NCBI RefSeq assembly: GCF_026571515.1
Contig: NW_026853829.1
Coordinates: 248,001-312,000, forward strand
Direction: 5' to 3'
Origin: Ruditapes philippinarum
Lineage: Eukaryota
Length of the DNA stretch: 64,000 nt
Part shown: positions 1,885 to 62,866 of the stretch, in pieces
Numbering within the stretch: the stretch's first letter is position 1
Layout of the letters: every line of letters begins with the position of its first letter
The notes under the pieces: generated by a model
Databases searched by the model: none
The model's input: the letters and a program-made list of their open reading frames with translations, nothing else
What the model was told of the DNA's origin: nothing
Program-made: the position numbers and the translations under genes

Positions 1885-2226
1885 TTTGAAAATAAACTGT
1901 GTTCTTCTGTATTTGATATTATAAGTTGTTGACGTCAAGTTTTCCTTATTCCTTTCTGATAAGATGCATGTATTATGAAGTCATACGTTCAAATCATTTC
2001 GTTTTATCTTATGAAACTTGCACTTAGAAAAGATAAGAGCAAGTTCAGTATAGTGCAATAAAAATTGTCGCAAAATGTTGGCCATATTAGAATTCGTTGT
2101 TAGTCGGTGGGTGAAAATAAATACGTAAATCCTTCACATAATGAACAGAACATATTTTTATCAACTTAAACATTTTTCAGTAAAATTAGTATAGAATATG
2201 TGTGGTTACAATTGTAATATTAAGAA

Positions 2227-4447
2227 AACAAGATATGTTTGTAAAACATGTATGCCCCCTATCAGCAGCCAATTAGTCATGTGATAAGGTTATTATGCAT
2301 GACTTCTGACCCAGTGATCAAACAATTAATAAGGTTTATAAAGTATCTACTGGTCATGACCTTGACCTTTGACCTCTTGACCCAAAACTCAATAGGGGTC
2401 ATCTGCTGGTCACGACCAATCATCATACAAAGTTTGAAGTTCCTAGGCCTAGGCATTTTTAGTAAATTGATCAGAAACCGTTTTTACCTACAAGGTCAAT
2501 GTGACCTTGACCTTTGACCCCTTGACCCCAAAATCAATAGGGGTCATCTGCTGGTCATGACCAATCACCATGCCTAGGTTTGAAGTTCCTAGGCCTAAGG
2601 TTCTCTTATTATTGATCAGAAAACCGGTTTAACATACAAGGTCAATGTGACCTTGACCTTTGACCCCAAAATCAATAGGGGTCATCTGCTGGTCATGACC
2701 AATCACCATGCTAAGTTTGAAGTTCCTAGGCCGAAGCGTTCTTTAGTTATTGATCAGAAAACCGTTTTTACTTACAAGGTCATTGTGACCTGGACCTTTG
2801 ACCCCTTAATCCCAAAATCAATAGGAGTAATCTGTGGTCATGACAAATCACCATACCAAGTTTGAAGTTCCTAGGCCTAAGTGTTCTTGAGTTATTGATC
2901 AGAAAACCGTTTTTACTTAAAAGGTCAATGTGACCTTGACCTTTGACCCCTTCACCTAAAATTCAATAGGGGTCATCTGCTGGTCATGACCAATCATCAC
3001 ACAAAGGTTGAAGTTCCTAGGCCTAAGCGTTTTTAGTTAATTGATCGGAAACCGTTTTTTACCTACAAGGTCAATGTGACCTTGACCTTTGACCTCTTGA
3101 CCCCAAAATCAATAGGTCATCTGCTGGTCATGACCAATCACCATACCAAGTTTTGAAGTTCCTAGGCATAAGGGTTCTTAAGTTATTGATCGGAAAGCAT
3201 TTTTACCTACAAGGTCAATGTGACCTTGCCCTTTAACCCCTTAACCCCAAAATCAATAGGGGTCATCTGCTGGTCATGACCAATCACCATACCAAGTTTG
3301 AAGTTCCTAGGCCTAAGGGTTCTTTGGGTATTGATCGGAAACCTGTTTTTACCTAAGAGGTCAATGTGACCTTGACCTTTGACCCCTTGACCCCAAAATC
3401 AATAGGGGCATCTACTGATCATGTCCAATCACCATCTCAAGTTTGAAGTCCCTAGGGCCTAAGGTTCTTTCATTATTGATCGGAAAACCGTTTTTACCTA
3501 CAAGGTCAATGTGACCTTGACCTTTGACCCCTTAACCCAAAAATCAATAGGGGTCATCTGATTGGTCATAACCAATCACCATACCAAGTTTGAAGTTCCT
3601 AGGCCTTAAGGTTCTTTAGTTATTGATTGGAAACCGTTTTTACCTACAAGGTCAATGTGACCTTGACCTTTGACCCCTTGACCCAAAATCAATAGGGGTC
3701 ATCTACTGATCTTGACCAATCACCATACCAAGTTTGAAGTTCCTAGGCCTTAAGGTTCTTTAGTTATTGATCGGAAACCGTTTTTGCTTTCAAGGTCAAT
3801 GTGACCTTGACCTTTGACCCCTTGACCCCAAAATCAATAGGGGTCATCTACTGATCATGACCAATCACCATACCAAGTTTGAAGTTCCTAGGCCTTAAGG
3901 TTCTTTAGTTATTGATCGGAAACCGTTTTTGCTTACAAGGTCAATGTGACCTTGACCTTTTACCCCTTGACCCCAAAATCAATAGGGGTCATCTACTGAT
4001 CATGACCAATCTCCATACCAAGTTTGAAGTTCCTAGGCCTTAAGGTTCTTTAGTTATTGATTGGAAACCGTTTTTGCTTTCAAGGTCAATGTGACCTTGA
4101 CCTTTGACCCCTTGACCCAAAAATCAATAGGGGTCATGTACTGGTCATGACCAATCACCATACCAAGTTTGAAGTTCCAAGGCCTTAAGGTTCTTTAGTT
4201 ATTGATCGGAAACCGTTTTTGCTTTCAAGGTCAATGTGACCTTGACCTTTGACCCCTTGACCCCAAAATCAATAGGGGTCATCTACTGGTCATGACCAAT
4301 CACCATACCAAGTGTGAAGTTCCTAGGCCTAAGGGTTCTTTAGTTATCACTCGGAAACCATTTGGTCTACGGACCGACGGACCGACAGACCGACGGACCG
4401 ACAAGTGCAAAGCAATATACCCCCTTTTCTTCGAAATGGGGGCATAA
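2227..4447 (+). mobile_element. Non-autonomous Helentron-type (HINE/pearl-like) element with ~14 x 145-bp tandem core
   Basis: 5' AAACAAG...TATGCCCCC subterminal IR and 3' hairpin CCCCCTTTTCTTCGAAATGGGGGCATAA. GACC/GACG microsatellite at 4370-4402. Monomer anchor CAAGGTCAATGTGACCTTG recurs at 3791, 3936, 4081 and 4226. Confidence 0.85.
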
Positions 4448-5961
4448 TTATCAATGATGACATACTACCAGATAAACTACAGCACACATTCAATATTGCT
4501 ATGTGCAAGAAAAAACATCATTAACAACAACAAAAACAACAACACAAATTACTTTTCTAGTTTGTCTAAGAATGTGTCGCTAAACTCTAGTTGCAAATTA
4601 CTTCTCTCGCGTACTTTTACCTTTCGATGATACTCTAAGATGCATACTAAAATGTATCAGTATAAAGATTAATCTAAGTAATTATCAATAAATTGTGCGT
4701 GAGTTTTCATAGCAATGCCTTGAGTAAATGTGACCAGACCGTCCTGACTGTGTTTTCGATGTATTTTGTAAGTTTTAGTCATTGCCACGCACTTTGAACT
4801 TTATGGTTGGCATACTGTGTTGTCATTGGTTGATAGTTATTTTCTTTTATCACGTGCTAATTCGCGGGGTTTACAGTGCGGCCAACGTTTTTCTGTGTAA
4901 TAGTTGAGCTTGTTGTCTTAGGAAACTTTTGAAAGTTTATCTTATTTTTTATTGGTAATATATCTTGGTATGTATACTTTGTATTAGTTGTATTACATGA
5001 GCTTCTGTTGAAATGAGTATTACATTCGTTTCTTTGTTTTCGGCGACATTTTAGACGTTTATGTAATATTGCATATTTTGTGTACATGAAATTGAAATGG
5101 CATAATCTGGTGAATTAACTATTGCTACTGTCATATATATTTCTTTTGTGCACAATACTTATTTTTAACTCACAGACTAAACAGCACACACTGGAGAGAG
5201 AATGTAATGAATGTTATGTTGCAGAATGTGATTGGTACCATTTACTGGTGAGTTAACATGTTGTGGTTTTGTTTGTACTGTGTTTATGTTGATAACAGGT
5301 TCGACATGTGATTGATATGTATTAGAATTTGTGACATTTATGAATGGTTAAGTATTAATGTATTTTGGCCACTAGCGTGTGATGAATTCATTGTCTTAAT
5401 GATACTCTGATGATCTTGTTAAAATGTTGCTAATGTAATATGTATTTGTAATTCATTATTTTAATTATATAGTAATTGGTTGATGAACTGTATTTTTCAG
5501 GTCACTTGTTGTAACTGCAAGTAGTGTCATCTGTTTAGGTGTCATCAATCATTTGTAATTATTTGTGACAGACGATGTAAATAAAGATGAGAACTTGAGA
5601 AGAGAACCCAACATCTTGGTTTTTTTATTCAGTAGTTGTTTACGTAAAAGCCGAGTAGTAACATAAAGATAAAATCAAATGTTATACAAATGATATCTGA
5701 ATTTAAAATGAAATAGCTCTGCACAAGAAAAACCAATGTCCTCGTTATATCGATTCCAAATGGTGACCACTATACAGAATTGCAAAATCATTTTCATTTG
5801 TCATATACAACTACATTAAAAAACCCTCAGTTCATTCATTTTGATTACTATCTACACATATACAAGCTATTTGTTTTAATTTCTTGATGTTTTTTATTCC
5901 ACATTTCTTTACACATATAGGAAAAACAATATGAATATGGAAAGGCGGCATTTTAATTCAT

Positions 5962-46560: not shown

Positions 46561-48261
46561 ACTCACTACCTTTACCGTTGTATTGTAATACAATTAAGGA
46601 TAGTCTAATTGATGTATATAGTTTTTTAATCATTATAAATTATTCAAATACCTATCAAACAACATAGAAGATTAAAATATGATTAAAATATAGGAAACAA
46701 GACCAACAAGGAAAGTGTGACAGTATTAAAGCGTGATAGTGCAGTCCGTGCGTAGTGGTTTCATGAACTCTCATCGCTTTTAGCAATACTTTTTCCAATT
46801 CGTTTATTTATAAGTTCATGAACAGATTTACCACCCATTCTAGTGATTATATTTTTTTATCATGCAACTTACGTGTGTTTGAGTTTGTGACGTTTAATAA
46901 AGGCTTTGTCCAGTATTGTTCACTCCTATTTAGTCTTTGAGGTCTTTTCCCCTTAAGATATAAATGTTTAGACATTAAAAAATTTAAGTTTGGCTGAAGG
47001 AAGTGAAAGAAATCATAAAAGCTTTTATTTTTATTTCTTTAAGTTTTTTTTATATTTGGTGTACTTTAATGGTTTCGAAAACATTTACGCATCGGCCAAT
47101 TACCTGAACAATCGTTTGCTTCGTTTACTTGTTTGCAATCAATACAATTACAATCACAATGTATAGTGATTTAGTATTTTGTATGGATATACAAATACTA
47201 CTTTGTTGACATTTTGCTACTTTTATTACAAACGATTTCACATTTTCATTTTGCAGGTCTTTCTTCAGGTAACAAGCATGTAACAGCTTTAAAACTTTTA
47301 CTTAAACGTTATTAATTTCATATATGCCTTTTCTAAAGAGGTAAACATTTATTCTTTTCAGAAACATAATGTGCCTTTAAAATGAACTTTTATGTTACGA
47401 TGTTATCACGCTACTCCAATTGTCCAATGTGGGAGCGTCATCAGAGATTTGATCAAATAGTTAATACGACGAAAAATAATGTATCCGTCAGAAATAAAGA
47501 TGATATTTTAAGCAGGGGTTGTGTTAAAAGAAACTGTCAATCATAATTTGGAACAATGTCACATGGGGTTAAAAACTGAAGATTACTAAAAAAAAATTCA
47601 ACTTTAACCCATTACTTCAGGAGCATTTTGTGAAAAATGGCTGTTTTCATTGAAAAGTCTCCCGTTACAAGTTCAAATTGCTATAATACTATAAAAACTG
47701 CCTCAATACTAATCAAACTTTGCACAAATGTTGACTGGGCCATTGCCTTTGCAACAACATGCTCAGGCTTAAATTTTCTGTTACCATGGCAACGAGGGGA
47801 CATCTCAAAATTGCCAAAAAACACTATTTCGCGTTGATTTTGTCCATCAAAATTGAATTCAAAGTGCTGCAACTTCTAAATGGATTGAGATAGAGTCAAA
47901 TGCTTTTCAGCTTTTGTTACATGTTACCTTATGATTAATCTGGGGTCATATTTAGCCTCTCACAAGTCCAAAATTTTCTTGGCGATGAGGGGGACTGCCG
48001 CCCCCTTCAAACCCTCTGAACAGAAGGGGGCACATCCCCCTTCTGGCAACCCCCTGATGTATCTTTTGGTTGGGGGCCGCACCGAAAAAGTGGTCACTTT
48101 TTTAACATTTCTTAAAATAAACAAAAAAAACAAACAAGTGTTAATGGCCTAAATAAGGCATTTTTTACCATTTTAGACAACAAAAGGGGAGTGGGGGCTT
48201 GAAAAAGGCGTTTATATCGCGTAATGGATGAAGATAAATTTTATTATTTCTTTTACCGTTT

Positions 48262-48622
48262 TCAACAACCAGTGACTTCTATAGAAATAGTCATAGACTT
48301 CCATAGCAACCAGTTACTCCCCATAGCAACCAGTGAGTCGCATTTAATTTCTATTGCAACCATAGATTTTTTAACACAAAATGAGTTGCCATAGCAACCA
48401 GTGACTTTCCATAGCAACTGGTAAGCATAATTGCAACTATAAACTTTCCATAGCAACCATTGACTTCCATACCAACCACTAACGTTCCATATCAACTAGT
48501 AACTTTCTTTAGCAACTATTGACTTCCATAGCAACAAGTGATTTTCCATAGCAACCAGTATTTTTTATAGCAATCATAGACTTCCATAGCAACAAGAGAC
48601 TTTCCATAGTAACCAGTGGCTT
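48262..48622 (+). repeat. ~20-bp minisatellite (TTCCATAGCAACCAGTGAC); resumes at 54835-55010
   Basis: Repeated CCATAGCAAC core in the same orientation on both sides of the nested insertions. Confidence 0.85.
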
Positions 48623-48799
48623 CTGGATATTTTCTGGTCCTTTGGGATCATGGACCGTTCCGCGACGGATATTTTTAACCAATGAAAGTGATCCGTTTAC
48701 TTCAGTGCGGTATTGCTTGTTGCTACCCGCCATCTTGTGCTCACAAGCTTTCACTTGGCAACTGCTACATCAAAAGTAAATACCGCGGTTTTATTCAAA

Positions 48800-51700
48800 A
48801 TGGTGCGTAGATGTGCCTGGGGAACATGCAATGCAGATTGCAGGTATCCTGATAAGATGATTGGGGTCAGATTCATAACATTTCCTAACCCTAAAACTCA
48901 ATTTGAGAAGTGTTTACGGTGGATAAAGGCATGCGCCCGACCGCATGAACAGTTAAATGTCAGCAGGATTAACAAAAATAAAGTCGTGTGTTCAACGGTA
49001 AGTGAATCTGTAAGAAATGCTGATTTATACATGAAATGATTTACCAAGCCAGGCTGGCTTTTGATCTGTTTGATGTGTGCCACTTTGTGGATACATGTTG
49101 TTGTCAGTTTATTTTGACAGTTCAATTTTAGTCTTCAAAGCAACTTATGAACTAGCCTAATGAACAAGTCTATGCCTGAATAATGTTGAGCCTAAAACTG
49201 GCCAGCCTTAAAAATAATTAACTTCAAAGCAACTTATGAACTAGCCTAATGAACAAGTCTATGCCTGAATAATGTTGAGCCTAAAACTGGCCAGCCTTAA
49301 AAATAATTATAAACTGCTCCAAACTTTTTTATATTTTCATAATACATTTTCTCTTTGACTTTTGTCAGAACATTCATTATCAATTCAGTAAAAAAGCATA
49401 TGTTGATGCATCATGCATTAAAATGGCTAACTTCATGGTGGTAGGCTATAAGTTACAAAAAAATAGTGACCATGAAAATAATATAATTTGTTAGAGGACT
49501 GATCTTTTAACCAATAAGTAAAATAAATATTGGTTATTTTGTTAAGCATACAAAAAATACTGAAAAGCCATTTTATAAATTATGACATTACCCTTTTCAG
49601 CTGGATAAATGGTTACTGTATACAGATCTTTTGTTTCATTTATATGTCATATAGAGCTCTACCTCCAGTATTGTTACTTTTATTTTATTTTTTTTCAAAC
49701 ACAAGTAATCACTATTCAAATAATTACAGCACTTCATGGGAGAAAATGGGCCAACTGATAAATATCCAGATCCCCTGCCAGCTGATGGATCATTGCATCT
49801 CCTACCAGACCACCACCAAGTGCAGGCGGTTGGACTTGGAAGCACCTATATCATTTGACATTTTGGTTGAACAAGAAAAAAACAAAGAGTAAGGTTAAAA
49901 TTTCAAATTTTGTATTTATTCATTAATGATAAGCCTTTGAACAATGGCACTTTTTATTTAAATCATCTGAATTTGTTTACATATCTGTAAAATCAAAAAG
50001 TGAAATAAAATTCAACAAATTTATTACATCAGTATATTTAATAGATAAATAAAAACTTGTTAAACTGACTGTACACAACTGTAACTTCAGTAGAATTTTG
50101 TCACATTGACATGAAAATTTTGAAAGAGAGTCCATGCATGTTTGTCTTAGCCTACACAGAAAGCCTTTTTACTCAATAGTATGCTAATTAACACAGTACT
50201 AAATATTACATGTGTGTTTGTAACAAATAAGGGTATGTTATAATAAACAAATTGATATTTGTTTCTAATAGGAATGAACTTCACTCCATGCTCAAATATA
50301 AATTTTGTAAATTATGAAACAGTCATAATTACTGATACTTATGCATCTTCTTTAATTATTTCAGAAATGTACAAACAACTACAGATGATGGAAATCAAAG
50401 AAATTATGAACTAAGTGGACAATGTGAAGTTGGCTGCCAAACAGACAAAGGTATTGGTCATGACACATTAATCAAATGTCAATATGTAACTTGCACATGT
50501 ATATCATATTTATATGGCCAAGTATAATTTAGTGTAAACTTATATAACCCAAACTTCTATGTAAAGGTTATATTGCAAACAGTTATTTATGCATGGCCAT
50601 ATAAGCTGCAATATGTCATTCACACATTAAATATAGTTTGAAACTATACATTTCCATGACTGCAATGTAAGAAAGGATGAGCATACTGTTCAAAAAAACT
50701 GGCTAACACATTTAGCATATTTGTCATAAATTCAACATCTGGTTCAACACGCTGAACAAACAAGTCGGACTCATTTGGACAATATACAATGAAATCACAG
50801 AATGAACTACCTGTAATCATGAGCTGTCCTTGAACCTGGGCATAGTATGCATGATTTGATTTCAGTACAACCTGGCCATTCTGATCAGTGTGTAAAAAGA
50901 AATTATTTAATTGGCAGCAAGCATCAGCAACAGTCAAGTCTCTGGCACTATAGGGACATTTTATTTCTATAATCCCTACTTTTCCATTATCACAGAGTTT
51001 TCCATCTGGGGTTGCACCTACAAATGGAAACTCATTATTTACAACAAAACCACATTCATGAATGTGTCTTCCAGGAAACTGAGCTAGATATTTAGACTTG
51101 GCTTTGCTCTCATTTCTTTTCCCATAAGATATAGATGGGGCATGAATATCTTTACTGGTAGAAAATAAACGTGACAGTAATTTTTCATTAGGGGGAGATT
51201 TCCTTAACATGATATCACCAAAGTTTGATGCTGTTAGCCTATTTTGTCTAGCTTGATGCCATGTTTCAGACATTGCCTGGTTTCTTGTACATTGCTCTAA
51301 TGTCTGTGGGTCTGTTACTGTATAATGACTTATTAAGTGCTGAAACTTTTCAGGCAGTCTAATTTGTGATGAGTTTGTGACACAGAGGTTACCACAGCCA
51401 TTTGTTGTTACAGGAATCATTGACTTCAAATTTCTTGTCTGAAATCAAAATGCATATATATTATTTCAGAGAATCAAGATGTTCATCTACATGAGGAAAA
51501 CTTGCAGCTAAAAATTCAATTATTGGAGAAAGACAAAGAAATTAATAGACTGAAATCAAAATTACAACATCTGGAAAGAGATATGAAAAAGAAACAACCA
51601 TTTTCTGCAGAAGGAATTAGAAATAGGGAAAAGGATATGAAAAACTTGTTTAAATATTACACTGGAATAACTTATGTCAACTTTTTATTTTTGTTTTCTT

Positions 51701-52529
51701 TTTTGTTTCCAAATTCACAAGAAACTGTTAAATATGGTAGGACTGACACTAAGCTACTATCAAATGAAGATGCACTTCTTCTAGTACTATGCAGATTGAG
51801 ACATGATTTTGGACTGAAAGATTTGGCAATGAGATTTAGTTTATCTTTGCAGTCAACAGGCATTGTATTTAACAAACTCTTAGATATTTTATATTTTAAA
51901 TTTGGTCAGATTTCACTGTGGCCCCCAAGGGATGATATTATATCTAGAATGCCAGCAGAATTTAGAAAAGATTTTCCTACAACCTTAATTATGATAGATG
52001 GAACAGAATTCAAAACTCAAGTACCAAATGCATTAGCTCTTCAAAGTCAAATGTACAGTGATTACAAATCATCTACTACTCTTAAAGCTTTAATTGGGTG
52101 TGACCCAAGTGGATCTGTAATTTTTATTTCTGAGCTTTTTACTGGTTCAATATCAGACAAAATGATCTGTGAAGAAAGTGGATTTTATGCCATATTGAAA
52201 GATTTGTTAAACCATGGTTACATTAATCCAGGTGATGGTATAATGGCTGATAAAGGATTTACAATACAAGAGGAACTTAATAAACTTGGCCTTGTGTTAA
52301 ACATTCCCCATTTTCTTCTTGTTCATCACAAATGTCTTCATCTGATACTTATTTAACTCAAAAAATTGCCAAACACAGAGTTCATGTTGAAAGAGTAATA
52401 GCTAAAGTGAAGACATATAAATTGTTGTCTCATAAAATTCCTACATCATTATTTAAACAAGCTAATAAGATCTGGTCTGTTTGTGCAATACTTACATTAC
52501 ATCAGAGAATATTTGTAAAAGACAAATGA
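48800..52529 (+). CDS. ISL2EU transposase (THAP + HTH + DDE); exons 48800-48997, 49730-49888, 50365-50450, 51470-52529; frameshifted in this sequence
   Basis: THAP C-x4-C...FP...W...CS|HF spans exons 1-2; catalytic motifs IDGTEF, MADKGF and HVER; all introns GT-AG. Frame breaks occur in exon 2 (~49790-49815) and at ~52310. Confidence 0.88.
49133..49309 (+). repeat. Perfect 89-bp-period tandem duplication in transposase intron 1
   Basis: CTTCAAAGCAACTTATG...AAAAATAATTA at 49133 and 49222. Confidence 0.9.
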
Positions 52530-54331
52530 CTGTCTGAGTTGCAATAACTTTGTTTAACAAATGTTAACATACTACTGCCAAATTAGTAGTTATATTATTA
52601 CTTGATTGATTTTGGCTGAATTTGTATTAAAGATATACTATGCTCAAATTTGATATTAGAAAATATTGATAATTAGTACACAGTAAATATAAAATAAACA
52701 TGTATTGACTTCACACAAAATAGATATGTTATGTTTAAAATTCTACATACTATAGGTGGTAACATTATGAATATACATGTATAGTGTCATTACAAAAGCC
52801 GTCAGTTTTTTTTAAAGAAAAGACCAACTTTACTTGACCTGTTAAAGGGAATGCAGCTTCCTATACATAGTTTATTTAATATTTTATCCAAATTCAACAT
52901 ATTCAGTAAGAATATCATAGATTTCAATAAATTTCTGTGATAAAAACATTTTACCCAAGAATGAGCATAGAGTATCTTCAATTAAATCTTATCTATATCA
53001 CATAGATGTTAAAATATTGTATGTAAAAATATATTACCTGATATGACAGAAATGAACCAAGCTGAACTTGACCAAGATCTGTTGTAACTAATGGCCTCTT
53101 TGATGAGAGAAGGTATTCAAGAGGTGTGCCTTTGGCCCCTTTTAACTGCTCTATATCATAGCTGGTAACCTCTGGAAGCCTGTAAATTTATGTGAAAGAT
53201 TTCATAAATTAAAACATTCTTTACAAATTTTATACATGTAAAATGTACAAGTATCTGACATTGTTGTTAAAATGTATATAAGTAAAACGCCTATATGGAT
53301 TTTGTTATAGTTATATAATATAAATAAAGAATGAAATTTTAAAAACATATGTGTAGTTACTTTTGTACTTTGTTTAAAATCTTACTTGTACTGAGTGTCA
53401 ACTTGGCATAAAACTGGTTTTCTCTTCCTTGTCTCACAAGCTTTGGCCACCACAACATGGTTAAGTGGGACAGGCTCAATCTTCTCTCCTCTTGGAACAT
53501 GCCATTGCTGGGGCACACTTGTACAACTCAACTGGTCAGGTACATTACTGATGTTGTGTAGTTTCAGCCCTTGAAGGGTTTTCACTAGACCAATAATGTG
53601 GGAACAGTGGCCTGTTAATCTGAAATATACAAGACTGCACATTATTATTGTATCAAACAGTGATTCAACAATGATGGTGATAAATCATGATGATGATGAT
53701 GATGATCATTTTTGTTATCATTAGATCTGTTTTGATTAAGTTGACAGAAAAAATACACCATGACTCTTCTGTCTATGATATCTTTTTTCTTTACTGAAGA
53801 GAATTAATTTTAAAAAAAAATCCGACATAGTTATACATGTATAATAAATAGATCTACATAATGGTGTATAGTATATACATTTTTTTATATTTTTTATTTA
53901 TTTATTTTATTTTATTATTTTATTTTTTTTGGAAAGTGGGAGGGGTGCAATTCATTTTTTTTATTCTAAAATAGAGAAATACAGAATCCCCAAAGAAAGC
54001 CTACTTAAGTTGTTGACAATTTTACGTACTTGATTACTTACCCAACCTTACAAGAGCAGTACGACTCTGTTATAGTATCTTTAAGAATCTCAATATGTAG
54101 AGTGTGCGGCTTTTCGTTTTTCCTCATTGATCTCCAACACCGAGCAACAACCTTTACCTTGGGTTTATCGTCAATATGAACCTTAATTTGATGGACATAG
54201 CCTTGAAGGTAGTAATTTAAACCTCTTTTTATAATCCTTTCCATAAGACTTCTGTGATTAGGTAGAAAACTAATAGATATATTATCGGGCACATCTTCTA
54301 GCGAGTCGGTTGTTGTTGATACGGCCGCCAT
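50644..54331 (-). CDS. SWIM zinc finger + YqaJ/lambda-exonuclease-like protein; exons 54331-54042, 53619-53386, 53179-53038, 51438-50644; 486 aa, open
   Basis: CSCKVG|LTGHCSH (SWIM), SCTSVPQQWHVPR, GSFLSYQ, WHQARQNRLTAS, GATPDG, IEIKCPY and YYAQVQGQL. Exon phases are compatible and the 1461 nt have no internal stop. Confidence 0.92.
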
Positions 54332-54406
54332 TTTGGATGCTGGCTTGTGAGGCATAGCAACAATCACTAGGGATTGCGCAATAGGCGGAAATAATCGGAA
54401 CGGTCC

Positions 54407-54830
54407 ATTGATGCAAGCACTATTAAGTGTGGGTATGGAGTACCGCTCAAGCCGGTGCTAGAGGGCGTGAGGGATGTTGCACATTTTTATTTTCCCTCAT
54501 CAAACCGAATCTGCAACTCATTTGTAATTGTGTTGTAATTAATGCTTTCGAGGGATCACTTTGTTTTCAGATTTTTATACTTCACAACAGCAGGTGTCAA
54601 GTGATGTGTGGCAGCTGTCAAACGTTGCCCGTACTTCACTTCAGTGTTGTTATATTTTTCTGGTCCTTCGGGATCATTGATGCCAGCGAGAATTGAGAAC
54701 CCGGTGCTAGGGTGCGTGAAGGATGTTGCACATTTTCATTATCCCTAATGTACAGACTCAAGCAAACCCGATTCTGCAATTCTCTTGTAATTTTGGTGTG
54801 ATAACTGTTTCCGAGGGATAACTTTTATAT
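54407..54830 (+). repeat. Family B structured repeat (about 1.5-2 tandem units; left piece at 48626-48651)
   Basis: Reverse complement of the 60245-60692 array; split by the ISL2EU insertion. Confidence 0.85.
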
Positions 54831-55719
54831 CAAGCTATGACTTTCAATGGCAACCATTGACTTCCTTCAATTGCAACCACTGAATTTCCATAGCAACCAT
54901 AGACTTCCATAGCAACCGGGGACTTCAAATAGCAATTGTTGACTCTCATAGAAACCTCTGACTTTCCAATGCAAAAATTTACTTTCCATAAGAACCATTG
55001 ACTAAAGTTAGCATCAGTGCGTCTTTACGCAACGTTTACATTGCGCAAATGGCGTTTCGTTGAATGGTTAATACACTAGTGTATTTTTTTTTTAATCTGA
55101 TAAGTTGTGTATGAAGCTCATGATAATGTGATATTATACCAATGTCCATTTAAATTTGAATTATTGTAGTGACAATGAATTATTTATATAAATTTCAAAT
55201 TTCGTTTGCTTCGCTCTGAAGAATAATTTATGTATTTCTTTTCATTATATGCATGTTTTTGCAAAGACATTCACCATAAAACAAGTGATACTTTATTGAT
55301 ACGGTTGACATAAATTTGATCAGCCTACGCTTTATTTAGAATGTTCATCTCCTATCTAATTCATTTTTGATCAGCAGATGTTTTACGACGTATGCTTATT
55401 ATAAACAATGGCACTAATAAATCTGACTGGTTAATGATGAAATAAGATTCTCTAGATAATATCATTACAATACCCAATACAAAATGTATATTGAAAATTG
55501 ATTTATTTTTTCAGAAATTATTAACAGATGTAAGACGAAGCTAGTAATTGATGGACGGTTGATAAAGATATAATATGACGGGACATATTGTAACTGTCAA
55601 AGATTATAGATATTAAGGTGGCATCATTAGATTGTAAATCAAGTTACTGTTTATTTATTGATATACATTAATCTTGTGACAGGGGTTTGTCGGTTGGTTA
55701 ATTGCCAAATTATGGTAGA

Positions 55720-55835
55720 TTTGGTTTAAACAATATTTTATTTCAGCAAATATATATATATACGCAATATATTACAATAAAATGCAAAAAGGATTGAGTA
55801 GAAAGCTAGAAGCTTTTTTAGAAACTCTCTCCTTG
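55720..55835 (-). repeat. 3' end of another CR1-group LINE
   Basis: Minus strand GGAGAGAG...AAGCTTCTAGCTT...TCAATCCTTTT...AAATAAAATATTGTTTAAACCAA parallels the tail at 39412-39523. Confidence 0.6.
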
Positions 55836-58029
55836 AAATGAAACAGTAGTTATTAATGATAACATTCATATATAAACAAAATATTGTATGCTTGGTAGAT
55901 TTGCCAATGAATACAAAACATCACAAAACATGTATAGATATTTTCAAATTACAATAAAGTAAAAACATTGATTAATAAAATCACGTGTTGCATTGGAATA
56001 ACATTATGTTAGTGCCCTCGTTCTTTTTAATAAAACCATTTATTTTAGTTTTAATTATTAAATCGAACTGAAATAATATGATTTTTTTTCATTTAAATTT
56101 TGTAATAACAAGAGGTTTCTTTAAAACGCCTTTGAATGTGAAGAAATCTTGAAAAGATAAATAAAAATGGTTTTATAATTATACTTAAATGTATGTTCAC
56201 TGATTGATTTTTTTAAATCGTGTTTTTAATGCATTTGTATCTAGGTAGATAATTGATAAATGGCTACTTTGAAATAAATAGCTTATTTGCATTTTGAATA
56301 TATCAGAATATAATTATAATTGTACGATGTCTACAATTGTTGAATGAACATACACGGTACATTCAGATTTAACAGATCTGAATTACATTGGAAGATGATA
56401 TATAATTGACTAGACATTGATAAAATTTAAATCACAAAATATAAATATAAAAAGAGTAAAATAGCAACTTTTATTTCACAAATGTAAAATTGAGTTACAA
56501 ATACTTGTGTTTTCTATATTCATTTGTTTGCAATATAAATGTGTTTAACATGTTAAAAAGCATTTTTGTCACAGCCGTTCTATCGAAAGCTATGCTTATT
56601 ACATTAAAGTTTTTCATATTTAATCTTGAAACATAAAAAGTTCAATTACTCATTACGTGATGTTAGAAGTATATGATTTCAAAGCTTGAGGAATCTAAAT
56701 CTATCAATTCGTGTCGGAAAATATATATACGCCAATAACCTCTAAAGTACAAGGTTTTTTGTTTGAGCATCTAATCTTATATCTACTTTCAACCTTATTA
56801 CGCGAAGTTTTACCTCCTCTATATTATCTTATAAAATGGAGTGGTTTTATTTGTAGGGAAAATAAGGTTTCATTGACATCAAAGAATAAGTAATTGTTAG
56901 CTAGCCTTTTCTGTTTGAAAGATCAGTTAATGTTATACGACATTGTACATAACTGGCAATGAACATACATTTGGTGTTGACGAATTCACAGAATGTTCTG
57001 TTAAAACGCACACGGTTTTCTCTGATAAAAGATCAGTGTTGACAATTAAAGCCGTGAATCAAATACATTGCATGCATCAAAACAATCAAACTAATTGATG
57101 GATAAGATAATAATGACCAAAATTTTGAAAGCAGAAAGTATATAGACATTCGTGTAAAAGTTGATTGATTACAACAGAACCAATATTAATTAATTAGACA
57201 AAGATATGTACAGCCATGGGATCTATGAACAAACTCAATCACAATTTTGTGTCATAAGATACATAGTAAATAATTTTGAACAAGTATTTTATATGGTTGC
57301 CCATTGAAAATGTTATTTAAAATAAATTTTAGATACATAAGTTATAACAGTGTTCGCTTTACAAATACATTTTGTAAATAGTTAAATGATACGTATAACA
57401 GTCTTCTGATAACAGTCCAAGGTCAACTGATCAGGCATCAAATTTTCTTGCCTTTCTATTGTAGTGCGGCGTCTCTACCATACTACATGTGTAGTTTTCG
57501 TTGTTTTTGAAGTTATTCATGCTATGATTTTTGCATGTTCTCATCATTGATTCATTAAACATAAAAATTTTCAAAGTTTATTTCAATCAGAACCAGAGGC
57601 ATACATATACAAAACTTTATGACGGACAGATTATACATTTAACAATAATTGCATTATAACAGTATACCTTGCAAACATAATTTACTTTGGAGAAGGTTTT
57701 GTCAACCTTATTCACCCTTACCAATTGTGACATATTTCAAACTAAATTTCAGGTTACCTCATTCCAATTTTAAAGTCAACCTTTTAACGAAACGAAACAT
57801 AAAGATGACTGACTGGAGTGAACAAAACACATGACCAATGTACTTTTTCTGTGTGAGACTATTGTGCTACATATGAACGACGCCTTAAAATAGTACACAT
57901 AAATATCCATTATATAAATACAGCACGATAAAGTGAGAATGCATTCTTTAAATTAAAACTTCACATGATTAACAATCTAGATAATTATTTGTAAAACATC
58001 ATTAAACAATTACCATATAATATTTCGTT

Positions 58030-58680: not shown

Positions 58681-60244
58681 TGAACACGAATACAAAAATA
58701 AAAATGTGCATAAAATATTGATAAATTTATTGATACTTATAAAAAAAAGAGAGCAGATAGCCAAACTTTCCAAGCAGACATAGGTTTGATTTGCCATTGT
58801 GACCACAATGTTTTATAACCTTTACAATTGCTAAAATAGCTACTGTTTCATTACAATTGTTTTGACTAAAATAACTAATTTTTAATACTCCTTAAACCCC
58901 GGTCAAAAGCTGCACAAATGCCTAGAATTGTCAGCAGCTTATTTGAATACACTATGAATATTAAACGTTACCCTCAGGATTCCAAATGCCAAGTGACATT
59001 CAAGATACCATATTGATTTAACTTTGGCATTTGTCTGAGGAAATCACATTTAAGCAATTTGAAATTTTACCAAAAGTCTAGACTAGCGTTAATGAATTAG
59101 CTTCTTTGATGTTGCAAAAAGTGATATGTAGTGGAATACACTTGACTAACAATTTGAGCAAATAACCATCTTATCAGGAGAAATTCTGACTTGATAGAAA
59201 GTGTTCATTAACATGGAGCGTCTGACAGAAAAAAAATCAATATATGATAAACAAGATCAACAAGGAAAGGCGGCGTTCAATGATTAACAATAATTAATTT
59301 AATTATTTAAACTAATAATACAACAAAACGAATTGGGTTTTTATCAATCAGATATTTTGACTTTAATACTGCAACAGAAACTATTCAAGTAAAAATAATA
59401 ATATCAAACAACATAAATATAGAAAACGGTTTTTTAAACTAACCAAGTTGCAGAAGCACTAAATAAATCTCAATGTTTAGAAAGTAAACATCAATTCACT
59501 TTGCCATTCTCGTCAATGCTGGTTATGTTTAACAAATAGTAAAGACCAAAGCTTTCAAATTATTTAAATATTATCTATTGAGTTAAACAACGAATAAAAG
59601 CCGAGAATTTACTTGTAGATAAGCAAAACACTTAATGTTTAGGAATAATATTAGCCCTTTATATAAAGCACTAAATATGGTTTTTTATTATCGCCCAAAA
59701 TATAAAAGTGTTCAAGTAAAATAAATTTCCTGCATTATGTAAGTTTGTTAATAACATTTCTATTAAGAGTTGTAACTTCTTCAGTAAACAATTTCTTAAT
59801 TTTCATGGATTTGGCATTTAATAAACAAACAAACAAGTTATTTAATTTTAGTCTTTGTCTCAGGAAACCAAAGGTTCTCTCTAGCAAATTATAGATTAAT
59901 CAGGTAATATTTTTTTCTTCCTATCCTGTCGCACATAGTTAAGTAAACATTTGATAGAAAATTAAAAAGCAGAAAGAAAATTAAAAAGCAGAATAATATC
60001 AACATTTCACAGAAGAGTAAGCGAAGTTAGATTTCCAGTTCCCGATTCATTAACATTACCCTTGTAAACGGTGTACTGCTTGATTAGAAATTTTTACCAA
60101 GTATCAAATATGACAATTACAGGGACGTCTGAATCTTCTGTAAAACAAACAACATAACCATAAAGAACAGTAATATAATTTTTTATGTTCATGAAAAAAA
60201 AATGACATACATTTTTTTATTCATTTTATCGCATGAACTACACA

Positions 60245-60692
60245 AATAAAAAAATCTGGAAACAAAGTGATCCCTCGGAAGCATTAATCACAACAAAATT
60301 ACATAAGAATTGCAGACTCGGTTTGATTGAGTCTGTACATGAGGGATAATGAATGAGTGCAACATCCTTAACGCCCCCTAGCACCGGCTTGAGCGGTACT
60401 CAATTCTCAACACTTAATAGCGCTGGCATCAATGATCCCGAAGGACCAGAAAAATATAACAACACTGAAGTGAAGTACGGGGCAACTTTTTACAGCTGCC
60501 ATACAGCACTTGACACCTGCTGTTGTGAAGTATAAAAATCTGGAAACAAAGTGATCCCTCGGAAGCATTAATCACAACAAAATTACATAAGAATTGCAGA
60601 CTCGGTTTGATTGAGTCTGTCCATGAGGGATAATGAAGGAGTGCAGCAGCCCTCACGCCCCCTAGCACCGGCTTGAGCGGTACTCAATTCTC
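60245..60692 (-). repeat. Family B tandem array, 284-bp period, ~1.6 units
   Basis: AGAATTGCAGACTCGG at 60306 and 60590; the units are nearly identical. Confidence 0.9.
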
Positions 60693-61685
60693 AAACCATC
60701 CATAGTTCTGTATTAGAGTAAATTCCAATGTAATTAATATCGGATATGGTATATCTGAGATGATATAAATTTGAAAATTTAACAACTATTTCAGGAAAGA
60801 CATTATTTATGTTGTAGACATAAAGTAGGAAATGTTTCGTGGTGTACATGATAACAGACTTATACAAAATAAATGAGTAAATCAAGTAGTTTAGGTAAAC
60901 TTTAACTGAAAAGAATTATTTAAATTTCAATATGAGTTATAACAAAACAAATTCATCTTACTATCATTACCATTTACAGAAGCATTTACAACGTAAAAAC
61001 AAATTTACTGCTATGGAAATGACCACTAAAACGAAGGTACATTTGACATTGTTGATATCCTTTATCTTTCTAACTTGTTGCGTTCATTGAACGCCGCCTT
61101 TCCTTGTTGATCTTGTTTATCATATTTTGTGTAAATCATTACAAAAAAATGATTTTTATCAAAGTTATCTAATTAACAATATTCAATTTTTTTAAGGTAT
61201 AGGAGTAACAGTTTTTTCGCGGGTATGTTTGAAAGACAAATCATCACCCTAAACGTCATACGGTGACTTTCAAGCTCTACTGGTCGAGGTCATTTGAGAA
61301 TAATATTCCTTACAGTCTGAAAGTTGGTACCAAAAGGCTAATGTAATATTTCATAATAATGATGTCAATAGTTTTGCATTTTCAATTCCACGCTTGATAT
61401 TGTATCACGAGTTGTTATGTTATTAATTCTAAAATATATAGAACTGCCAAGTCATTTTTACAAAGAATATTTTATATATTGACAATCATATATAACATAG
61501 CTATCAAAATAAATGTGATAATATCGGCATTTCACCATTTAAGTTTAATTTAACAATTTGGAAAACACCGAATTTGCCATAACAATGCCGATAATTTCTT
61601 AATAAATAGAACAGGATTATGTTTTAAACTGAAGAAAAAAATTAAGTTTTGAAAGTGAAACATTTACATACAAATACTGTAAACA

Positions 61686-62866
61686 AATAGAGAAAAACAA
61701 AAGCCCTAAAGAAAGCACAACACGGCAAAATGTAAAATGTTGCAGGCTCGGTTTGATAGAGCCTGTTCATGGACGGTACTGGCAAGTGCAAGCTAGCGTC
61801 CACGCCCCCTAGCAAGCAGAATTCAACATTTAAACACAGAAATGGTGAAATTTTGAATTTAGAAACATCCGCAGATGTTTCTAACTAAATAAAATGGAAT
61901 TTTGAAAGAGGACCTGAGGTTATGAAGCCTGCATATCACAGATAAGTCGTCAAAAGACAAATTTAAAAAGCAGGCAACATTTCCTAATGGTGATAATACA
62001 GTATTCAAGTAGGAATATTGGAACCAAACAATTACTAGAAATATAAAGTATTCACAATTCTGTGTTTTGAGAGTAAAATATAAAGGAACGCTTATAATAT
62101 AGATAAATACAGAATCCCTAAAGAAAGCCCAACACGGCAAAATTGAAAATGTTGAAGGCTCGGTTTGATTGAGCCTGTTCATGGACGGTACTGGACAAGA
62201 ATAAAGATAAGGTCAAAAATTAAACTAACGATTCATCCAGTATGCAATCGACGATCTGTCTAGCCGATAGCGCGACACAATCTTACAATCCCTAACGTCC
62301 TCTAGCCGTACCCTTTTTAAAAACGCTATTTCTTTTTTTCAATGATCTCTGATCTCAGAAACGTAAATTTATTCCATTTTGGAGTACATGTGACGTCACG
62401 CAAACGTCGTTCGACAGCACATTCGTAACTGCCGCGGCTATTATCTACAATAACCTCGGAAACAATACGGATCGCAAGTAGTTATACCACGTGGTTTCAG
62501 ATGTTAACAAAAACTGAGTTTGCAATGTAAAACGAATGTATATATTTGACATCAAAAGGTAAAATAAGGTAGGTTTCGGGCTTGTACCGCTCAAGCCGGT
62601 GCTTGGGGACGTGAGGGATGTTGCACGTATTCATTATCCCTCATGTACAGACTCAATCAAATAGAGAGAAATAAGAATGCCTAAAGAAAGCCCAACACGG
62701 CAAAATTGAAAATGATGCAGGCTCGGTTTGATTGAGCCTGTTCATGGACGGTACTGTAAAGTGCAAGTTACCGTCCACGCACCCTAGCACCGGCTTAAGC
62801 AGAATTCAACATTTAACACGAAACTTTTGAATTTAGAATCACCCACAGATGTGTTCATACGGCGGT
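61686..62866. repeat. Cluster of family A copies (61686-62042, 62097-62195, 62660-62866; minus) and a family B fragment (62583-62660; plus)
   Basis: Same AATAGA.AAA...CCTAAAGAAAGC start and GCAGGCTCGGTTTGATTGAGCCTG core as the 21.5-24.3 kb cluster. Confidence 0.85.

Follow-up and report, generated by a model that had tools for sequence, protein, structure and literature searches.

The window analyzed in this study is a 64,000-nt stretch of the Ruditapes philippinarum genome (contig NW_026853829.1, positions 248,001 to 312,000). Positions 48652-54406 of this window constitute a complete ISL2EU transposon of 5,755 bp, bounded by 11-bp terminal inverted repeats (TIRs) and an AT target-site duplication. 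The element carries two genes on opposite strands, a THAP-DDE transposase gene (plus strand, four exons) and a SWIM-YqaJ nuclease gene (minus strand, four exons), and the last intron of each gene holds the entire catalytic exon of the other. The best database matches of the element's proteins were R. philippinarum RefSeq proteins (97-99%). The left TIR (48652..48662, plus strand) begins with GG, and its first 10 bp are also present in L001, a complete relative; the right TIR lies at 54396..54406 on the minus strand. The left and right copies of the AT duplication occupy 48650..48651 and 54407..54408, and reads from unoccupied copies of the repeat that received the insertion join 48651 to the right flank through a single AT, confirming the 2-bp duplication.

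The transposase gene begins with exon 1 (48800..48997), which encodes a THAP zinc finger (PF05485, E 2.7e-06 in the full-length RefSeq relative P0163), followed by exon 2 (49730..49888) and the 86-nt exon 3 (50365..50450), over which the nuclease 3′ untranslated region (UTR) probably runs in antisense. Intron 3 (50451..51469; 1,019 nt; GT..AG; phase 1) holds the entire opposite-strand YqaJ exon, and exon 4 (51470..52529) encodes a coiled coil, HTH_Tnp_4, DDE_Tnp_4 (E 9.5e-25) and the stop codon; exons 2 to 4 and intron 3 are supported by reads. Four read runs were used, X13 (presumed RNA), X2 (DNA), X22 and X24, the last of which covered little of the element. In the window, the transposase frame is shifted twice, in exon 2 and in exon 4 near 52305. 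Reads of X22, X13 and X2 over these sites contain the extra bases, two of them in exon 2, an exon also backed by P0163; the frameshifts are private to this copy or assembly errors. Intron 1 contains an exact 88-nt tandem duplication at 49133-49309, and a shorter allele was observed in X2 and in one X22 read.

On the minus strand, nuclease exon 1 (54042..54331; RefSeq models begin 8 codons farther upstream) is followed by exon 2 (53386..53619), which contains the second half of a SWIM-like C-x-C...C-x-H motif, and by exon 3 (53038..53179). The SWIM label was read from this motif, and Pfam itself returned no SWIM match. Intron 3 (51439..53037; GT..AG; phase 0), which was recognized from the sequence and from relatives, holds the entire opposite-strand HTH-DDE exon, and exon 4 (50644..51438) encodes a YqaJ/lambda-exonuclease-like catalytic domain (PF09588, E 2.7e-14) and the stop codon. 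A putative 3′ UTR, presumably on the same strand, extends over 50304..50643, with the first canonical poly(A) hexamer at 50356 and the end of X13 coverage at 50304. The joined exons read through as one open frame of 486 aa that matches residues 9-494 of RefSeq XP_060581521.1 exactly, and the same intron-3 junction is used by all four RefSeq nuclease models of the cluster, which are automated predictions. Adjacent RefSeq models on one contig encode a 501-aa transposase and a 494-aa nuclease (LOC132744662 and LOC132744663). A Protein Data Bank (PDB) search with the nuclease matched lambda exonuclease chains; by this likeness, the protein is predicted to be a 5′-to-3′ exonuclease that processes DNA ends during transposition. 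Nuclease intron 3 also contains fragments of a high-copy repeat at about 52627-52978, just beyond the transposase stop codon. A Syngnathoides biaculeatus RefSeq isoform annotated as 'syntaxin-binding protein 1b' (P0005) ends in most of an ISL2EU nuclease, representing either an annotation fusion or a real exonization.

The first-pass annotation had placed each catalytic exon inside the last intron of the other gene; all coordinates hold, and both introns are bounded by GT..AG. It had further held that the two pre-mRNAs are antisense over at least 1.9 kb while no coding exons overlap, which agrees with the stop-to-stop span of 1,886 nt and the absence of coding overlap that we measured. The only DNA that is intronic on both strands is a 31-nt spacer (51439..51469), at the edges of which the two splice acceptors lie back to back.

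Splicing of the transposase intron was supported by an assembled X13 contig (contig 6) of 615 nt, which aligns to 51468-51835 from its position 248 onward, with a contig of the same depth (18.2) covering exon 2. The sum of exon 2, exon 3 and part of exon 4 (163+86+366 nt) is exactly the 615 nt of this contig. The DNA run X2 is contiguous across 51470. The 50450>51470 junction proposed at first pass is therefore supported by this spliced contig; the corresponding row was not among the 15 of 195 junction rows listed. The nuclease junction 53038>51438 was likewise not among these 15 of 195 rows; one X13 contig stops exactly at 53038 and the unspliced path at 53067, 30 nt later. Depth arithmetic over these 30 nt leaves about 6x for a second path, and the two contig ends are the signature of a graph branch at the nuclease donor, which lends the junction indirect support. 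Furthermore, a continuous 485-aa nuclease, of the kind expected from a spliced mRNA, is encoded by two Logan contigs of the nested clade described below (1,743 and 1,550 nt). X22 covered the element at a depth of about 1-10 with equal first-mate directions and no strand bias, and change counts revealed no evident A>G or T>C excess over the DNA run, which was not a matched sample. The nesting is thus confirmed, by the spliced contig for the transposase and by the open frame, the RefSeq models, conserved splice sites and the indirect read-graph evidence for the nuclease.

Relatives were collected by a metagenome scan with a transposase alignment, which yielded 495 loci, and the best 80 of the 495 were mapped for both genes. 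Among these 80, 11 were directly interleaved, with the YqaJ exon lying on the opposite strand and upstream of the DDE exon; 5 were interleaved by implication, since the upstream exons of the nuclease follow the DDE exon directly and no YqaJ intervenes; 43 were plain tail-to-tail; and 21 could not be scored. At 80% identity, the 16 nested loci form 12 families, with a minimum pairwise identity of 41%, and the 43 tail-to-tail loci form 24. The first-pass annotation had cautioned that novelty would be lost if this were the standard ISL2EU layout; in the present sample it is not, as 43 of the 59 scorable sampled relatives are plain tail-to-tail. L001, a complete element of 4,720 bp inserted between unrelated flanks, has the same eight exons, near-identical TIRs and an AT duplication; upstream transposase exons ahead of the YqaJ exon were also found in L002, L025 and probably L045. 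Of 25 loci searched for TIRs, 10 yielded candidate pairs, of which three measure only 9 bp and are doubtful. Compaction was rejected as a benefit of nesting: nested elements measure 4.7-5.8 kb and tail-to-tail elements with TIRs 4.1-5.3 kb.

In all seven nested elements measured, the two acceptors lie 31-138 nt apart and the pre-mRNA span common to both genes is 1.7-2.2 kb; the stop-to-stop gaps of 16 tail-to-tail loci range from 117 to 1,482 nt, with a median of 379. The phases of the two nesting introns differ (1 versus 0) in every element resolved, so that swapped catalytic exons would be out of frame. The shortest spacers were found in the window (31 nt, 51439-51469), in L001 (37 nt, 2122-2158) and in L014 (33 nt, 1185-1217). 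Spacers of 31, 33 and 37 nt correspond to about one branch-point distance, and in these one acceptor, read in reverse complement, might double as the branch site of the other strand. In L025, a P-element-like transposase with TNP-like Pfam domains (positions 1-1950) lies just upstream of exon 2 of the nested-type element and is probably inserted in intron 1.

Phylogenetic analysis of the collected loci and of database proteins showed that the nested loci belong together. In a quick DDE tree of 98 rows, they form one side of a single branch with SH-aLRT support of 100, requiring one change of state versus a shuffled mean of 14.3, and a careful DDE tree of 41 rows thinned of near-copies supports the clade at 100/99. 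The nested clade is also recovered, at 97/89 and with one state change, in a YqaJ tree whose 52 rows include 7 nested and 22 tail-to-tail loci; viral and other YqaJ outgroups, of which 10 rows were drawn from 80 distant YqaJ loci, fall outside the clade. NCBI transposases placed within the nested clade of the DDE tree, from proteins only, come from bivalves, gastropods, a chiton, Lingula, a crinoid, a hemichordate and Fundulus. The viral scans returned 65 candidate stretches, none of which encodes a relative of the transposase, and the prokaryote scan returned 3 loci that are ISL2EU-like and provide no outgroup. Two contigs labelled as a bacterial metagenome-assembled genome (MAG), L161 and L162, carry at 1995-5129 an ISL2EU-like element of 3.1 kb. 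Its TIRs are 42 bp long, its THAP-DDE gene lacks introns, and a convergent gene encodes a SWIM-like protein of 317 aa without a YqaJ domain; the element may be host contamination or a nuclease-less variant.

The two nesting introns follow the same division. Among 31 tail-to-tail loci examined, the nuclease junction motif was found in 13; the frame runs on through it in all 13, and in 9 of these it continues unbroken into the YqaJ core. THAP and DDE lie in one open reading frame (ORF) in 12 of 22 tail-to-tail loci, and 25 of 43 tail-to-tail loci, but 0 of 16 interleaved ones, have an unbroken SWIM motif. Conversely, 14 of 15 rows, made up of the window and 13 related loci, share a phase-0 nuclease GT donor at one codon, which argues against chance. 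The phase-0 nuclease join ranked first in 5 of 10 rows and second in 2, in a ranking that left out the window and L003; 6 of 12 rows placed a strong phase-1 transposase acceptor at the top, the others being degraded, short or unanchored. The nesting introns are clade-specific and absent from the tail-to-tail loci that could be read, and the nested layout probably had one origin and is probably the derived state.

The ISL2EU group (ISL2EU/IS4EU in Repbase) of the PHIS superfamily was defined by Han et al. (PMC4122938, PMC4482050). As the first-pass annotation had stated, the pair of a THAP-HTH-DDE transposase gene and a YqaJ exonuclease gene has been described for this group (PMC4482050, PMC4122938), and the role of the nuclease was listed as unknown by Han et al. 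in 2015 (PMC4482050). The present element resembles the group in its THAP, HTH and DDE_Tnp_4 transposase, its YqaJ second ORF, its size of about 5 kb and its animal host, in the AT duplication found in the window and in L001, and in its TIR, which at 11 bp beginning with GG falls within the reported 6-259 bp usually starting with GG (PMC4482050). It differs in its target, C-AT-T in the window and T-AT-A in L001 instead of the proposed A|AT|T preference (PMC4482050), and in the mutual nesting of its genes through their last introns, most sampled relatives being tail-to-tail and intron-poor. The main texts of PMC4122938 and PMC4482050 do not mention introns, overlap, orientation or nesting, and no statement of the nested layout occurs in the available portions of PMC9179366, PMC9587614 and PMC12730594, in supplements 1-2 of PMC4482050 or in a file of PMC9179366. 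Our searches of the open-licence literature found no description of mutual nesting in ISL2EU, although Repbase may hold the layout implicitly: the listed YqaJ protein of ISL2EU-11_CGi has 477 aa, and full-length proteins of the nested clade are 477-497 aa. The nesting is a conserved, clade-defining ISL2EU layout of a gene pair already known.

Other systems share single aspects of this arrangement. MuDR of maize also carries two convergent genes (mudrA and mudrB) in one DNA transposon with antisense RNA between them, but its antisense RNA arises from failed termination between separate genes (PMC3440606), whereas the pre-mRNA overlap described here is obligatory. PIF/Harbinger elements combine a related DDE_Tnp_4 transposase with a second gene, and both genes are required for transposition in vitro (PMC9179366); however, that second gene is Myb-like and the duplication 3 bp, in contrast to the YqaJ nuclease and 2 bp found here, and the available text of PMC9179366 mentions no gene nesting. 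Membership in PIF/Harbinger was rejected on these grounds (a Myb/SANT second gene and a 3-bp TWA duplication versus YqaJ and 2 bp), as was membership in Spy, which has a single ORF, no duplication and an AAATTT target, unlike the two genes and AT duplication of this element. Drosophila Dync2h1 and CG5674 lie in each other's introns (PMC10556659), but they are unrelated host genes at one locus, whereas the present pair belongs to one mobile element and is conserved across a clade. KolobokE likewise is a DNA transposon carrying a lambda-exonuclease-like nuclease (PMC9587614).

On balance, we favor, by a modest degree of confidence, an origin of the layout of this ISL2EU clade in a single internal rearrangement, with the layout likely retained because neither intron can now be lost. 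The ancestor would have been tail-to-tail and intron-poor, and would have gained introns, including an intron ahead of each catalytic block. A tandem duplication of the central block (acceptor, DDE exon, spacer, YqaJ exon, acceptor) would then have followed, after which both proximal exon copies would have decayed. This route would keep both proteins at every step and would place the acceptors back to back, as observed; a simple inversion would not produce the nested layout. In the present element, promoters near each end would fire inwards, and the nuclease mRNA would be spliced across the DDE exon as the transposase mRNA is across the YqaJ exon. Each polymerase would cross at least 1.7-2.2 kb of the partner gene, and one copy probably could not transcribe both genes efficiently at once. 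As exact loss of either intron 3 would delete the catalytic exon of the partner, the nested state could act as a ratchet that needs no benefit. The first-pass annotation had suggested that the interleaving stops either gene being lost alone; this does not follow, since either catalytic exon can be deleted within the other gene's intron while that gene stays intact. The nesting locks the two introns, not the genes.

Several observations weigh against this account. No intermediate was found among the sampled loci, none of the tail-to-tail loci having both nesting introns, and the sequence of intron gain followed by duplication and loss was itself inferred. The unlocked introns 1 and 2 show the same degree of conservation as intron 3 in these loci, so the ratchet gains no differential support, and conservation of the layout over 41% identity fits selection equally well. 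The deep nodes of the YqaJ tree collapse into a polytomy and drew long-branch warnings, and the DDE tree was built without an outgroup. The layout calls of L008 and L013 are weak, and upstream transposase exons were not detectable in L012. The scan patterns were derived from window-like proteins, which confines the sample to the nearer ISL2EU groups. Finally, the nuclease junction was not sighted directly in reads, and the principal X13 contig spanning nuclease exons 1-3 retains its introns.

The foremost alternative, which we hold to be possible but clearly short of even chances, is that nesting was selected as a self-limiting switch, in which obligatory head-on transcription, possibly with antisense RNA, keeps one copy from making transposase and nuclease together and thereby damps activity or staggers the two proteins. 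The first-pass annotation had also proposed that the interleaving could couple expression or generate nuclear dsRNA for self-regulation; the latter would be a candidate role. Coupling of the two genes by transcriptional interference is plausible from the geometry: the obligatory shared span of 1.7-2.2 kb in 7/7 elements compares with the 379-nt median gap of the tail-to-tail loci. No reversal was seen among the 12 nested families, copy number is low (4 nuclease models in RefSeq), and in 9 of 14 rows nuclease exon 3 is reached without a canonical poly(A) hexamer, so that mature RNAs may overlap as well. However, such mature overlap is not conserved: on the transposase side, 5 of 14 rows have a hexamer ahead of the partner's exon 3, and on the nuclease side so do 2 of the 4 rows in which a donor was located; the tail-to-tail families are numerous without nesting (24 families), and added antisense RNA did not repress the sense transcripts of MuDR (PMC3440606). 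A stronger form of this idea, that the interlocked cassette is a built-in regulator in one animal ISL2EU clade, with the back-to-back acceptors 31 nt apart and head-on transcription making the two genes mutually exclusive per copy, can be put forward only tentatively. If true, it would be an architecture-based brake on transposition undescribed for any eukaryotic DNA transposon, spread over molluscs and probably brachiopods, echinoderms, hemichordates and fish.

A one-step origin appears unlikely. Here, two copies would have recombined, or the central block would have been circularly permuted, creating the nested layout with one or both of the nesting introns arising simultaneously from cryptic splice sites. 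As the readable tail-to-tail loci have neither intron, no missing intermediate would be needed, and back-to-back ends would also result; however, two working GT-AG pairs in the right phases would be required at once, and the nested clade gained other introns too, which points to a general phase of intron gain. An annotation artefact, in which the long introns would stay unspliced and the internal ORFs would represent independent genes or a pair of nested elements, is very improbable: the missing nuclease junction row, the unspliced main X13 contig and the exon-4-only products (258 aa) given by gene callers are outweighed by the single TIR pair with its AT duplication, the exact 615-nt spliced transposase contig, the open 486-aa nuclease with the same splice sites in 13 other loci, and the continuity of the same protein in tail-to-tail relatives and short Logan contigs. 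Exon swapping by inversion or trans-splicing to yield THAP-YqaJ or SWIM-DDE hybrids, for which the adjacent acceptors and the separation of the zinc-finger part from the catalytic part by both introns might speak, is scarcely credible, as phases 1 and 0 put the hybrids out of frame and the central block is inverted in 0 of 80 loci.

The nesting defines a structurally diagnosable subgroup of ISL2EU and clearly exemplifies introns whose loss is barred, since each contains an exon that the partner gene needs. Nested and tail-to-tail relatives with the same two proteins offer a natural paired comparison of overlapping transcription as regulation or frozen accident. The nesting also causes gene callers to split such elements into exon-4-only products or to fuse them into host genes. 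The near-intact copies (RefSeq LOC132744662 and LOC132744663) provide a route to the function of the YqaJ nuclease.

The element is inserted in a copy of a very abundant, transcribed repeat, which occupies 48627-48651 and 54407-54825 of the window; its summed depth in X2 is thousands of times that of the element, and many X22 reads match it too. Rfam returned no matches within 47500-56000. More copies of the repeat lie near 60244-60700 and 61694-62819. Specificity for this repeat as a target was not supported, given that the L001 flanks are unrelated and an X2 contig diverges at the TIR. X13 contigs agree with 8 and 4 flank bases past the TIRs before diverging, which may reflect a local target preference. 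A 19-20-nt minisatellite flanks both sides at 48290-48620 and 54830-55000, outside the element and the target repeat.

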